A model generated the notes under the pieces. It worked only from the letters and a program-made list of their open reading frames with translations. It had not been told where the DNA came from and ran no database searches. Below are positions 4,566 to 59,920 of a DNA stretch of 64,000 bases, in pieces (the stretch's first letter is position 1; every line of letters starts with the position of its first letter). The position numbers were made by a program, and so were the translations under genes. This DNA comes from Octopus vulgaris. Lineage: Eukaryota. Where the stretch lies: assembly GCA_951406725.2 (NCBI GenBank), contig OX597822.1:21204001-21268000 (forward strand), written 5' to 3'.

Positions 4566-4712
4566 ACATTCGAAGCTTTCTTCCAGGGGATCTAATGCGC
4601 ATGGCTTAGATTTCCCTTGGCGGGCTGCCCATATCGGAGCAATCTCAAGATTAATCAGCCGAAATTGCTAAGATGATCTGGTTCTTGACTGATGACTGAG
4701 GGCTTCGAATGT
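4566..4712 (+). ncRNA. Rearranged (non-circularly permuted) hammerhead ribozyme, copy 1
   Basis: P1 4566-4580/4698-4712; P2 4583-4620; II ggctg 4623-27/cagcc 4656-60; III agcaa 4638-42/ttgct 4665-69; AUC cut after 4644; I tcaaga 4645-50/tcttga 4683-88; GAAA 4661-64; CTGATGA 4689-95. Confidence 0.7.
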
Positions 4713-4790
4713 CCCGTCCTGTGGTTCTTGTGTCGTCTCTGTGGTGTTTCATGTTCTTGTCCATGTCTGTAATTATTTTTACCGTTTACC

Positions 4791-5346
4791 TATATATATA
4801 TATGTATATATGTATATATATATATATGTATATATATATGTATATATATATATATATATATATATATATATATATATATATATATATATGTATATATATA
4901 TATATATATATATATATATATGTATATATATATATATATATATATATATATGTATATATATATATGTATATATATATATATGTATATATATATATATGTA
5001 TATATATATGTATATATATATATATATGTATATATATATGTATATATATATATGTATATATATATATATGTATATATATATATGTATATATATATATATA
5101 TATATATATATATATATATATATATATATATATATATATATATATATATATATATATATATATATATATATATATATATATATATATATATATATATATA
5201 TATATATATATATATATATATATATATATATATATATATATATATATATATATATATATATATATATATATATATATATATATATATATATATATATATA
5301 TATATATATATATATATATATATATATATATATATATATATATATA
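4791..5346. repeat. (TA)n microsatellite
   Basis: Direct inspection. Confidence 0.98.
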
Positions 5347-5956
5347 TTATGTGAAATAGAAAGATGAATAATCTTGTAGTAGATTAATCAAAAGTTTAAC
5401 CGATACCTTAGTAGCAAAAATCACAGCATTAAAACAGCTCGGTTGGAGGTACAACCATATGGTGTTGCAACCGTGCGTTGGTGCGGATAATTGAAATTGG
5501 AACATTATTGGTGAATTGAAGAAATGGAGCTGAACGCAGATTGAACAGAAATCGTTTATTTCATTCTACACGTGTTTTCAAAGGCACAAATTACCAAATC
5601 CGATGGAATAATGGGACCATATTGTGTCTTTCTTCTTCAGGAAGAAAATAGGAAATCTGTTGGAAAACAAAAACAGAACAGAGGAGCAAAAACAAATCGA
5701 ACTATGCTCCTAAGAGCCATGGGCTTCGCCATGGGCTCTTAGGAGGATAGTTCGATTTGTTTTTGCTCCGCCTCTGTTCTGTTTTTGTTTTTCCAACGGA
5801 TTTCCTATTTTCTTCCTGAAGAGAAAGACACAATATGGTCCCATTATTCCATCGGATTTTGGTAATTTGTGCCTTTCGAAACACGTGTAGAATGAAATAA
5901 AACGATTTCTGTTCAATCTGCGTTCAGCTCCATTTCAATCAATTCACCAATAATGT
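5347..5956. mobile_element. Penelope-like pLTR-type element with ~225-bp inverted arms, inserted in (TA)n
   Basis: 5502-~5724 is the reverse complement of ~5728-5956 with a ~3-nt loop; HHR in each arm; deleted copy at 46854-46965. Confidence 0.7.
5806..5899 (+). ncRNA. Type I hammerhead ribozyme with palindromic stem III (slightly degenerate mirror copy on - strand at ~5557-5650)
   Basis: ttc-CTGAAGA(5816-22)-gaaagacacaa...ttgtgcctttc-GAAA-CACGTG-TA-gaa; GUA cut after 5889; ACACGTGT palindrome. Confidence 0.8.
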
Positions 5957-8452
5957 ATATATATATATATATATATATATATATATATATATATATATAT
6001 ATATATATATATATATATATATATATATATATATATATATATATATATATATATATATATATATATATATATATATATATATATATATATATATATATAT
6101 ATATATATATATATATATATATATATATATATATATATATATATATATATATATATAATATATATATATATACATATATATATACATATATATACATATA
6201 TATATATATATATATATATATATATATATATATATATATATATATATATATATATATATATATATATATATATATATATATATATATATATATATATATA
6301 TATATATATATATATATATATATATATATATACATATATATATATATATATATATATATATATATATATATATATATATATATATATATATATATATATA
6401 CATATATATATATATATATATATATATATATATATAATATATATATATATATATATATATATATATATATATATATATATATATATATATATATATATAT
6501 ATATATATATATATATATATATATATATATATATATATATATATATATATATATATATATATATATATATATATATATATATATATATATATATATATAT
6601 ATATATATATATATATATATATATATATATAAAAAATATACATAAATAAATATATATATATACAATATATACATATATATATATATATATATATATACAT
6701 ATATATATATATATATATATATATACATATATATATATATATATATATATATATATATATATATATATATATATATACATATATATATATATATATATAT
6801 ATATATATATATATATATATATATATATATATATATATATAATATACATATATATATATATAATATATAATATATATATATATATATATATATATATATA
6901 TATATATATATATATATATATATATATATATATATATATATATATATACATATATATATACATATATATATATATATATATATATATATATATATATATA
7001 TATATATATATATATATATATATATATATATATATATATATATATATATATATATATATATATATATATACATATATATATATATATATATATATATATA
7101 TATATATATATATATATATATATATATATATATATATATATATATATATATATATATATATATATATATATATATATATATATATATATATATATATATA
7201 TATATATACATATATATATACATATATATATATATATATATATATATATATATATATATATATATATATATATATATATATATATATATATATATATATA
7301 TATATATATATATATATATATATATATATATATATATATATATATATATATATATATATATATATATATATATATACATATATATATACATATATATATA
7401 TATATATATATATATATATATATATATATATATATATATATATATATATATATATATATATATATATATATACATATACATATATATATATATATATATA
7501 TATATATATATATATATATATATATATATATATATATATATATATATATATATATATATATATATATATATATATATATATATACATATATATATATATA
7601 TATATACATATATATATATATATATATATATATATATATATATATATATATATATACATATATATATATATATATATATATATACACATATATATACACA
7701 CACACACACACACACACACACACACACACACACACACACACACACACACACACACACACACACACACACACACACACACACACACACACACACACACACA
7801 CACACACACACACACACACACACACACACACACACACACACACACACACACACACACACACACACATATATATACATATATACATACATATATATACATA
7901 TACACATATATATATACATATATATATATACATATATATATATATATATATATATATATATATATATATATATATATATATATATATATATATATATATA
8001 TATATATATATATATATATATATATATATATATATATATATATATATATATATATATATATATATATATATATATATATATATATATATATATATATATA
8101 TATATATATATATATATATATACATATATATATATATACATATATATATATACATATATATATATATATATATATATATATATATATATATATATATATA
8201 TATATATATATATATATATATATATATATATATATATATATATATATATATATATATATATATATATATATATATATATATATATATATATATATATATA
8301 TATATATATATATATATATATATATATATATATATATATATATATATATATATATATATATATATATATATATATATATATATATATATATATATATATA
8401 TATATATATACACACATACATAAATATATACATACACACACATATATATATA
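5957..8452. repeat. ~2.5-kb (TA)n with internal (CA)n at ~7696-7866
   Basis: Direct inspection. Confidence 0.98.
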
Positions 8453-8751
8453 TGGTTTCTGGCATATATTTATAGGAAATAAAGGATGTGAAAAAATATC
8501 AACAATAACATTACATTTATCAACGCTTCTTTATTTTCCAAGTGCCACCAGCCACCAGTAAACAAACTTTCCCTGTCAAAATAGTACTGAAATTCAAAGT
8601 TGTTAAACATGTGTTTTTACAAAGATTGTGAATACAGGTTGAACAGTAGGCTGCTATACATACATTGAAAATAACAAACATGCAGGTGCAGTTATTGAGG
8701 CATGGAAAAGCAAGTTCCATTTCTAGCATTAATGAAAATTCATTTTATATA

Positions 8752-57444: not shown

Positions 57445-57842
57445 ATCATTTACTTGCTTCACTCATTAATTAGACTGGGGCCATGCTAAGGTACCACCTT
57501 GAAGAATTTTAGTCGAACAAATCAATCCCAATATTTATTTCTTTTTCATTATTCAAACCTGATATTAATTCTATCAGTCTCTTTTACCAGGCTGCTAAGT
57601 TACGGGGACATAAACACATCAACGTCGTTGCCAAACAGTGATGGAGGAAAACACGCACACACACACACACACACACACTCACATGGAAGGCTTCTTTTAG
57701 TTTCCATCTACCAAATCCACTCACAAGGCTTTGGTCAGCCCCAGGCTTTTGCAAAAGATAGCAAGGTGCTATGCAGTGGAACTGAACCTGGAACCATAAG
57801 GATGGAAAGCAAACTTTTTACCACACAGCCATGCTTGTGCCT
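57445..57842 (-). mobile_element. SINE family B
   Basis: Family consensus. Confidence 0.8.
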
Positions 57843-58299
57843 CATAATAACTAGTTATGTTTCTTTAACATAGTAAGCTCAGAACCTGTCAATGCTGGGG
57901 TCAATATTTCATGATTTTGAGTTCATTATAAATAATTATCAATGATATACTGGTAGCTGATTTAATTCATCGTTATCATTGTCATTTTACATTTGCTTTC
58001 CATGCTGGCATAGGGTTAGACAGGTCATCGTAGTCCAAATAATTTCTTATTGGAAACATAATAACTGGCTTTCGTACATATTATTTGGTTTGGTTTCTAC
58101 AGTTTGGTGCCCTTTTTATTGCTAACTGCTTTACTGTATGGTATGCATTTTCTTGTGACATCAAAACCACAGTACTCAGTAACTTAAGTTATGTAGATCA
58201 AGAAAGAGACTTGAAGAAGCAATGAAAGCAGAAACACCAGGAATAGGCTGTTGAGAGGGGAAGTAATAATTAAATATTTCTGGTTTTTGTTGTAAATAT

Positions 58300-58502
58300 C
58301 AGTTTCAAATTTTGGCATTAGGCCAGTAATTTTGAGAGAGGGAGTAAGTTGATTACATCATCCCCAGTGTGCAGCTCTTATATTATTGACCCCCAAGGGG
58401 ATGACAAGCAAGGTTGACCTCAGTGGTATTTGAACTCAGACTGAAGAAATGCTACTAAGCATTTTGCCCAACATGCTAACGATTCTGCCAGCCCACTACC
58501 TT
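58300..58502 (-). mobile_element. SINE family A
   Basis: Family consensus, diverged. Confidence 0.75.
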
Positions 58503-59833
58503 ATTTTTGATATAGCAGCTTCAATGCCAAGCAGTGATGAGGAATAAATGAACTTTAGGGTAGTTAGAACATGTTTCTGATGCATTTTAACTTCCAAAGG
58601 CAAACTCATTGCAGCTACACCTCGGCGAAAAAATTCTTTCTTAAGGTATAAAGTGTAAAATGCCATAACTACCTAGTGCTTCCTTCTAACAGATTTCCAG
58701 ATGCATGTTTCTAGCTTTTTAGCCTTCTTCAATGGGAAATACCAAAGAAAAATAATGTGTTGTTGTAAATATTATTACTGCAATATAATTGTTGATGTTC
58801 TTATAATTTTTCTTATCTTTTTTCTTTTCATAAATGCTGCTGTTTTGTCTGGCTGTCAACCGTGTGTCTCAGGTATGTACTATTCTAAATTCTCTAGTAG
58901 CTATTACTTGCTGTAGGTAACTTTCTAGATAAAATATTCCAAGTTACTAAGATGTAAAACAATATTTGATGCTGGGCTTCCAAAATTTCTGGTTGGTTGG
59001 ATTGTATATGGGGTAAAGTATAGATAACTATGTTTTCTTAAATGCTGGATATTCAATGTCCCTCAGAGATATATGTAATTAGTTGGATTTCAAAAATGTT
59101 TGTCTCATGTTTGTATTTTAATTTTAATACAATTTGTCACTTATTTCCAATTTGAAGTAGTGAAATGTTATTATTATTTTGAAAGAAATGATTTATTTAG
59201 TATATATATATATATATATATATATATTAACGTTTGTTTTTATGTCAATATTTATAAAAAGATTTAACATTAAACTGAAGGATTACTCACTTTTTAATAG
59301 AGTACTTATTTATTAACTTTTACAAAAAAAAAAGGTGATATTGACTTTGGGGTGTTTGCTTGCTTGGCTTCTGCAGTTTGTTGATTACTTTTGGTTCTTT
59401 TTGGTCCATAAATCTTTAGCAGAGAGAGAGAGAGAGAGAGAGAGAGAGAGAGAGAGAGAGAGAGAGAGACACACACACACACGAGCACACACACAATGAT
59501 TATTTTAAAACATGTTTGTTGTTTATTATATCAATGGAGAACAATGGAATGGTAGAAACATAAACAAAGTGGACTAAATATATGAAAAATAATTACATTT
59601 CTCCAGCTACATTCTTGATTGAAGATTGATTTTTACGTTTACCCTTTGGTATGATGACTTTTGAAAGACATAAATAACAATTCTGACTGATGCTGTATTA
59701 ACAGCAATTTACAATCAACTGTCAAATTGTAAAACACTGCCATCACAAGACTTATATGTACATGTGTAGGAATTACAACCGTGTTTCATGGTCTGCTACC
59801 ACAACAGCTCCTTTATAGGATCCAGTTAGCTCT

Positions 59834-59920
59834 AGACATCATCAGGAGGAACCACGTCCGGTTTCGGCCCCTACACCTCTACCGTTTTGACGTGGCGGGT
59901 GCCCCCTTTTGGAGGTGTCT
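59834..59920 (-). ncRNA. Rearranged hammerhead ribozyme, copy 3, in a GC-rich element (~59765-60310)
   Basis: On -: agaca(P1) cc tcc aaaa ggg(P2) ggcaccc(II) g ccacgtc aaaa cgg(III') TA gagg(I) tgta ggggcc(II') GAAA ccg gacgtgg(III) tt cctc(I') CTGATGA tgtct(P1'); GUA cut between 59880 and 59879. Confidence 0.7.

Follow-up and report, generated by a model that had tools for sequence, protein, structure and literature searches.

Hammerhead ribozyme architecture has been described as six permutations of three unbreakable blocks, in which the block made of CUGAnGA and stem II stays unbroken (PMC10085705). Among these permutations, type SGC comprises the HRIMA-1 motif and its variants (Eckert et al. 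2023, PMC10085705), and both the SGC and the CSG orders cleave in vitro as cis constructs; type SGC was found in metatranscriptomes, and the genomes of known organisms gave only one GCS candidate (PMC10085705). Craig et al. (2021) reported that Naiads, a clade of Penelope-like elements, lack canonical hammerheads, some being marked HHR_core or HHR_half_core (Naiad_Ovul as HHR_half_core), and the consulted passages of that paper describe cephalopod Naiads as long inactive (PMC8557442). Here we analyse a 64,000-nucleotide (nt) stretch of Octopus vulgaris contig OX597822.1 (positions 21,204,001 to 21,268,000, hereafter the window), which holds three copies of a hammerhead motif in S-G-C order whose core appears to be split between A9 and G10.1.

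Three split-core motifs in the octopus window

All three motifs are genuine and lie in three separate high-copy repeat families, termed F1, F2 and F3. A six-helix parser scoring P1, P2, II, Pext, III and I fits every copy with predicted cuts after 4644, 28686 and 59880 (minus strand), and this re-parsing reproduced the coordinates, strand order and cut sites proposed in the initial annotation of this DNA. The copies and their parts are as follows.

4566..4712, plus strand: copy 1 (family F1), split-core S-G-C hammerhead, predicted cut after 4644 (AUC); supported by the parser, 99-100% identical family copies and a pile-up of 5' ends
Copy 1 parts, plus strand: P1 4566-4580/4698-4712; P2 4581-4622; strand II from G10.1 at 4623
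Copy 1 core, plus strand: NUH = AUC 4642-4644; I 4645-4650; II' 4656-4660; GAAA 4661-4664; CUGAUGA 4689-4695
28622..28742, plus strand: copy 2 (family F2), split-core hammerhead, predicted cut after 28686 (GUU), zero-nt junction
Copy 2 parts, plus strand: P1 28622-28626/28738-28742; P2 28627-28659; G10.1 28660
Copy 2 core, plus strand: GUU 28684-28686; GAAA 28701-28704; CUGAUGA 28731-28737
59834..59920, minus strand: copy 3 (family F3), split-core hammerhead, predicted cut after 59880 (GUA)
Copy 3 parts, minus strand: P1 59920-59916/59838-59834; G10.1 59903
Copy 3 core, minus strand: GUA 59882-59880; GAAA 59865-59862; CUGAUGA 59845-59839

The proposed strand order is P1, P2 hairpin, II, Pext, III'-UH-I, II'-GAAA-III, Pext', I'-CUGAnGA and P1'. 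The core itself would be an ordinary hammerhead core in reversed (S-G-C) cyclic order, opened at a new place: A9 and G10.1 would be unlinked, A9 continuing into P1' and G10.1 coming after P2, to give a near-perfect four-way junction in which P1 and P2 probably stack beside the core/stem II stack and hold A9 and G10.1 without a covalent link. A viroid hammerhead reportedly tolerates an extra base at the A9/G10.1 step. A short covalent link and Pext would keep stems I and II side by side, substituting for the usual loop-loop contact. All three copies possess the hammerhead core (the CUGAnGA, GAAA and UH letters, A15.1-U16.1 and G10.1-C11.1), and none of them has the nested three-way junction and cyclic C-G-S order of types I-III. 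Copy 1 has 2-nt linkers in its junction, and copies 2 and 3 are slightly decayed (copy 2 has a stem III mismatch at 28682; in copy 3, stems I and II and the loop of P2 are altered), the majority sequence of the F2 and F3 families pairing better. What had been described as stem III extending past a bulge is indeed a paired region, and is better read as a separate helix, Pext, matching the helix through which stems I and II interact in type SGC.

A first descriptor, requiring the order II ... III'-UH-I ... II'-GAAA-III ... I'-CUGAnGA, matches the window three times as against 0 matches in 200 dinucleotide shuffles, so that the similar rate in shuffled sequence which the initial annotation had named as refuting was not seen. 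When all letters outside the core are shuffled, 5, 2 and 0 of 3,000 sequences per site pass the descriptor for copies 1, 2 and 3, and the real score is reached by none of the 3,000 core-preserving shuffles at any of the three sites. As a viral control, viral contigs were scanned loosely for GAAA...CUGAUGA, and 0 of 80 loci in that order pass the fold. Another 200 kb of DNA from the same genome gave no descriptor match, nor a match of any family over the ribozyme; a density of three copies in 64 kb is above the genome average, and the window is a lucky cluster. Standard hammerhead models miss the fold, as had been expected: with E values up to 5, Rfam matched only TA-repeat microRNA look-alikes in the window and no hammerhead, and in 12 loci no hammerhead reached gathering score.

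Relation to types SGC and CSG

The octopus motif has in common with type SGC the S-G-C block order, the pseudoknotted core, a short stem I-to-II link and a helix that connects these two stems on their other sides. In type SGC, however, strand II follows right after CUGAnGA, whereas here it lies far upstream and the RNA ends are held by a P1/P2 four-way junction; and type SGC is metatranscriptomic, whereas the present motif belongs to high-copy genomic elements of animals. The octopus RNA would therefore work like type SGC yet not be a member of it, because the block in which strand II begins within 2 nt of CUGAnGA is missing, pairing of this downstream strand being at chance level. Type CSG, known from two metagenomic sequences (PMC10085705), shows the same cyclic order but has block C intact and no P1/P2. 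Thus the order, which had been put forward as possibly new, is that of published type SGC (PMC10085705), and only the split core and the junction are likely to be novel. In the literature searched, which left most subscription papers outside, we found no account of the split layout or of permuted hammerheads in Naiad or restriction-like endonuclease (RLE) elements, and the consulted parts of PMC13725137, PMC10162972, PMC3088659, PMC4640811 and bioRxiv 10.64898/2026.07.22.740005 contain nothing on a split-core layout; PMC13725137 cites Weinberg 2015 for hammerheads with additional helices, so an extra-helix variant at this position may already be published.

An R2-group LINE carries the fold at its 3' end

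Copy 3 lies at the end of a non-LTR element (one without long terminal repeats), a long interspersed nuclear element (LINE) of the R2 group.

59768..60341, minus strand: F3 LINE 3' end, R2-group (RLE) non-LTR element, 5'-truncated; sharp 3' end about 112 nt past the cut
60200..60341, minus strand: end of the F3 LINE open reading frame (ORF; reverse transcriptase (RT)/zinc knuckle/restriction-like endonuclease), last codons and stop, the stop ending at 60200; supported by tblastn to locus L062, translation and homologues

Six of 30 F3 loci, including the one in the window, extend upstream into the ORF end. The single ORF encodes an RT, a zinc knuckle and a PD-(D/E)xK restriction-like endonuclease, with R2 proteins as its best solved-structure matches, and the element may belong to the HERO clade. 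HERO is listed as the mostly non-specific RLE clade in the consulted part of PMC4640811.

Alignment of 28 relatives of the F3 protein led to 80 metagenomic loci (the best 80 of 155). At a parser score of 24 or more with P1/P2, the split-core fold is found in 34 of the 80 R2-group LINE loci (28 distinct copies), and all 35 matches lie on the ORF strand; among the 30 loci containing the ORF end plus 200 nt, 22 have the ribozyme downstream. In eight LINE loci it separates the end of one ORF from the start of the next, and two LINE contigs start and finish with it, implying that these LINEs are head-to-tail units or assembled from circles. Head-to-tail or circularly permuted R2-group LINE contigs were noted at L442, L457, L469, L476, L480, L482, L491, L501, L446 and L502. 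The F3 LINE protein had no relative in viral contigs, and a scan of metagenome contigs for the F3 motif gave 0 matches. Six further relatives of the LINE (L518-L523) lie within bacterial or prokaryote assemblies and are probably eukaryotic contamination. At the extreme 3' end of F3 in the window (59768-59812, minus strand), a hairpin is followed by GAAA and a short stem, as in the 3' half of a type I hammerhead of conventional layout whose CUGAnGA has decayed.

Ribozymes are reportedly present at the 5' ends of R2 and other non-LTR elements in the form of hepatitis delta virus (HDV)-like folds (Eickbush 2010 and Ruminski 2011). These are likewise self-cleaving and free the element RNA from a longer transcript (consulted part of PMC13725137), but they belong to another class, and here the ribozyme comes after the ORF, in a repeat that also precedes the next ORF.

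Covariation of the six helices

The 28 distinct LINE-linked copies allowed the covariation check that the initial annotation had called for, and all helices covary. Watson-Crick pairs occupy 132/140 positions in stem I, 133/140 in II, 79/84 in III, 99/112 in P1, 83/112 in P2 (110 including G-U) and 98/112 in Pext, each of the six helices exceeding the maximum of 5,000 partner swaps. The core letters are invariant across the homologues, the CUGAnGA, GAAA and UH core being required by the descriptor in these 28; G10.1-C11.1 is kept in 28/28. Linkers of 0 nt predominate at the junction (A9-P1' in 23/28, P1-P2 in 26/28 and P2-G10.1 in 26/28). Because the parser itself selects pairing, pairs were also counted after 24 of the 28 copies had been aligned with plain MAFFT (leaving out L505, L509, L515 and L444), which gave a covariation of 0.380 versus 0.161 when shuffled and 0.09-0.13 when slid. 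Nine representatives from the octopus genome, falling into about four related groups, have Watson-Crick pairs at 44/45 positions in stem I, 43/45 in II and 24/27 in III, with two to four pair types in most stem I-III columns. The distance from cut to C11.1 is 13-17 nt in most copies and 12-17 nt over the whole range, and the I-to-II linker measures 1-5 nt in the octopus families. The non-circularly permuted order originally proposed, in which a helix between A9 and G10.1 contains both RNA termini, is supported and covaries across homologues.

Families F1 and F2 and the proposed link to Naiad

Copies 1 and 2 lie in non-coding elements.

4534..4790, plus strand: F1 element, 5'-truncated copy of a 776-nt non-coding head-to-tail unit; fixed 3' end 146 nt past the cut; inserted in (TA)n
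28180..28960 (approximate boundaries), plus strand: F2 element, non-coding unit of about 780 nt with a TA-rich tail, a partial tandem and an inverted piece

A first look at the families gave 2,421 (F1), 2,929 (F2) and 1,711 (F3) candidates, which are not copy numbers. F1 is a young family: its top 40 matches are 99-100% identical, often 5'-truncated and in partial tandems. Both F1 and F2 use (TA)n targets and show 5' truncation with partial tandem and inverted copies, an insertion pattern given for Penelope-like elements in the consulted part of PMC8557442. Neither unit carries its own endonuclease-RT ORF or shows a direct link to a Naiad driver, and their proposed placement in the Naiad clade follows from ribozyme type and insertion pattern. 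The Penelope-like origin initially suggested for all three copies is accordingly retained by inference for copies 1 and 2, but not for copy 3, the 3' end of an R2-group LINE.

F1 is similar to the minimal type I hammerheads found in Penelope-like elements and in non-LTR retrozymes in its terminal-repeat position, in its non-coding tandem units, each with a hammerhead, and in the likely processing of tandem transcripts (consulted parts of PMC7229834 and bioRxiv 10.64898/2026.07.22.740005). Those hammerheads, however, are nested type I folds with a short stem III, often dimeric, in units of about 170-400 nt compared with 776 nt in F1.

More families with the same fold occur in flanking DNA. In family F6 the ribozyme lies 642-1,417 nt past a Penelope-type RT on the same strand in 11 of 30 octopus-genome loci; a GIY-YIG piece upstream of the RT, which is the Naiad order, was seen in one locus of the F6 RT family (L207), and ribozyme and GIY-YIG piece were not seen together in one locus. 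A motif taken from a published Octopus Naiad consensus has 212 exact matches in the genome.

File S5 of PMC8557442 was read by eye, leaving CUGAGGA aside, with line breaks that can hide matches and names taken from neighbouring headers. On this basis the full split-core fold is present in 9 of the 54 published Naiad consensi: three near-identical ones from Acropora, Naiad-3_Chem, Naiad-2_Movir, Naiad_Plae, one crustacean (EuTe by position), Naiad_Obim and Naiad_Ovul. Naiad_Bfor also fits with a weak stem I, and six nematode consensi look like intact type CSG with an interaction helix. The same fold in non-octopus Naiads, as in the metagenomic LINE loci, overturns the idea of a fold restricted to octopus-type elements. 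The core of the F3 LINE is, by eye, almost letter-for-letter that of the acanthocephalan Naiad_Plae. Eight Naiad 3' ends in the file did not fit by eye, two of them twister-like; these eight are Mley, Chem1, 2 and 4, Movir1, Ppla, CGi and Mgal. Esco likewise could not be fitted, nor could the passages on spiders and ostracods. The two twister-like 3' ends, those of Naiad-1_Movir and Naiad-4_Chem, carry by eye motifs resembling twister where other Naiads carry the rewired hammerhead. Two other conserved structured motifs are common to Naiad-1_Chem and Naiad-2_Chem. The HHR_core and HHR_half_core annotations concern these same elements, to which the consulted part of PMC8557442 assigns no structure, and the split-core fold would explain their scattered core words.

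In a hunt for the F1 driver, 150 of 2,532 Penelope-like candidates were scored; all intact ORFs belong to one family with a C-terminal endonuclease, which carries a conventional-order minimal hammerhead variant, and no link to F1 was found among these 150. Loci L192-L199 (e.g., L192:2793-5051, minus strand) represent this Penelope-like family, which is young and inserts in (TA)n. It has an intact 753-amino-acid (aa) frame of RT and C-terminal GIY-YIG, with a separate ORF of about 350 aa upstream, and its 3' untranslated region holds a minimal hammerhead-like motif whose first core block is a variant. This family is a possible candidate for the F1 driver. An F2-type copy next to the member at L193 is an independent insertion.

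F1 5' ends pile up at the predicted cut

The fixed 3' end of F1 has 565 exact matches. The 100 places listed hold 82 arrays, and in the first 80 of these we examined the 5'-most unit. Within 250 nt of the 3' end, 34/80 arrays end, while 46/80 read through the site. In the interval from -12 to +2 around the predicted cut there are 12/80 5' ends versus 1.6 expected (Poisson p ~2e-7); three lie exactly at the cut, and 16 fall in -20 to 0 versus 0 in +1 to +15. In one copy that starts at the cut, a short piece is duplicated upstream, as a template jump would leave it. This pile-up would be the genomic footprint of the predicted cleavage.

The terminal repeat of Naiad Penelope-like elements, of their non-coding partners (F1 and F2) and of the R2-group LINE clade (F3) would be the site of action. 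Hammerhead cleavage after H17 leaves a cyclic phosphate and a 5'-OH. By this chemistry the ribozyme would cut read-through or tandem transcripts to unit-length RNA. The reverse transcriptase, primed at the fixed 3' end, which in F1 lies 146 nt downstream, would either run off at the cut and yield copies starting there, or continue through uncut or re-joined, circular RNA and give partial tandems. RtcB circularises retrozyme RNAs in vitro, according to the consulted part of PMC7229834. What the data show is that the fold is conserved, that it is linked to the elements and that 5' ends pile up at the site; for the octopus elements we infer the chemistry, the monomer state, the junction geometry and the circular intermediate.

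Weighing the alternatives

Taken together, the motif is very probably an active ribozyme for which cleavage is predicted: a hammerhead, probably monomeric, in S-G-C order and split at A9/G10.1, in the terminal repeats of Naiad elements, their non-coding partners and R2-group LINEs. Several points weigh against this. The descriptor picks paired sequences and inflates the pairing percentages, only pair-type variety, strand bias and the unfitted alignment being independent of that selection; the homologues are related, so the partner-swap counts are not probabilities; and minimum free energy folding, which recovers P1 and P2 and cannot score pseudoknots, offers alternative nested pairings. Eight of the 30 LINE loci with an ORF end had no downstream match. 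For the pile-up, the choice of the -12 to +2 interval followed an initial sample of 30, which has at least one locus in common with the later sample (L357 = L427), the AT-rich linker by the cut gives microhomology to (TA)n targets that could move some ends, and 3 of the 34 'ends' are internal indels. A published precedent for the break at A9/G10.1 was not found in the literature searched.

The fold could be real and act only as a dimer or across tandem units, the nested topology being restored between two copies. Minimal Penelope hammerheads and amphibian retrozymes work as dimers (consulted part of PMC7229834), and F1 and the LINE elements are found in tandem. Nothing in this sequence analysis seems to favour the dimer form, however: stem III is long and not palindromic, P1 closes every copy on itself, the distance from cut to C11.1 is kept to 12-17 nt as an intramolecular fold predicts, and the core would still be split at A9/G10.1. 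We regard this reading as unlikely.

It is very unlikely that the motif is a hammerhead-derived structure that binds an element protein and cuts very slowly or not at all, with the pile-up reflecting RT stalling or microhomology. The 46/80 F1 arrays that read through the site would suit such a structure, yet every catalytic letter and the NUH are kept in two element classes. Stalling would moreover be expected about 68 nt downstream, at the 3' edge of the fold, where only 2 ends lie; each of the remaining TA/AT microhomologies within these 250 nt has 0-1 ends, and two ends near the cut sit in non-TA flanks. A plain type SGC ribozyme, with stem II formed by the strand that directly follows CUGAnGA and with P1/P2 as hairpins that flank it by chance, is extremely unlikely even though type SGC is published and active and the downstream strand makes 4/5 pairs with G-U in F2, F3 and F5, since in the 28 copies the downstream alternatives reach 29-40/140 Watson-Crick pairs (swap mean 28-35) against 133/140 upstream, and P1 and P2 covary and abut with 0-nt linkers.

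Implications for retroelements and hammerhead rules

The active split-core hammerhead preferred here would break the stated rule of six permutations and unbreakable blocks and add an opening point inside the core. Non-circularly permuted ribozymes, so far met as rare circles in metatranscriptomes, would also number thousands of copies in the genomes of animals. The puzzle raised by Craig et al. (2021), of Naiads spreading without a canonical hammerhead, would find an answer in that many have a rewired one and some a twister-like motif. The R2-group LINE clade would gain a hammerhead and a terminal-repeat layout, which bears on retroelement mechanism and on RLE-based genome-writing tools, and the 5'-truncation footprint would be rare genomic evidence that retroelement hammerheads cut the reverse-transcribed template.

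More tentatively, and with some doubt on our part, the split-core hammerhead, closed by a perfect four-way junction, may be the ribozyme by which much of the Naiad clade and a whole R2-group LINE clade routinely process their RNA, with the 3' module exchanged between them and both copying via unit-length, re-circularised RNA. If so, the LINE clade would be autonomous, bear pseudo-LTRs and pass through a circular intermediate like that of retrozymes.

Other hammerhead-like and repeat features

Conventional-order motifs also occur in the window and at another locus. At 4248-4390, a long near-perfect palindrome centred at about 4318 carries in each arm a conventional-order CUGAUGA...GAAA...UC hammerhead-like motif, and probably represents a Penelope-like element's 3' end in inverted form. 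A further repeat, present in three decayed copies at 15913 (plus strand), 41832 (plus) and 40816 (minus), has a conventional minimal type I hammerhead layout. Just upstream of a Naiad remnant, L161:3300-4670 holds a decayed element that is Penelope-like, differs in kind and has a type I hammerhead of conventional layout. The window further contains, all on the minus strand, a broken LINE RT (14093-15739), two mariner-type transposase pieces (52201-53127 and 9541-9894) and a 267-aa frame (11455-12258).

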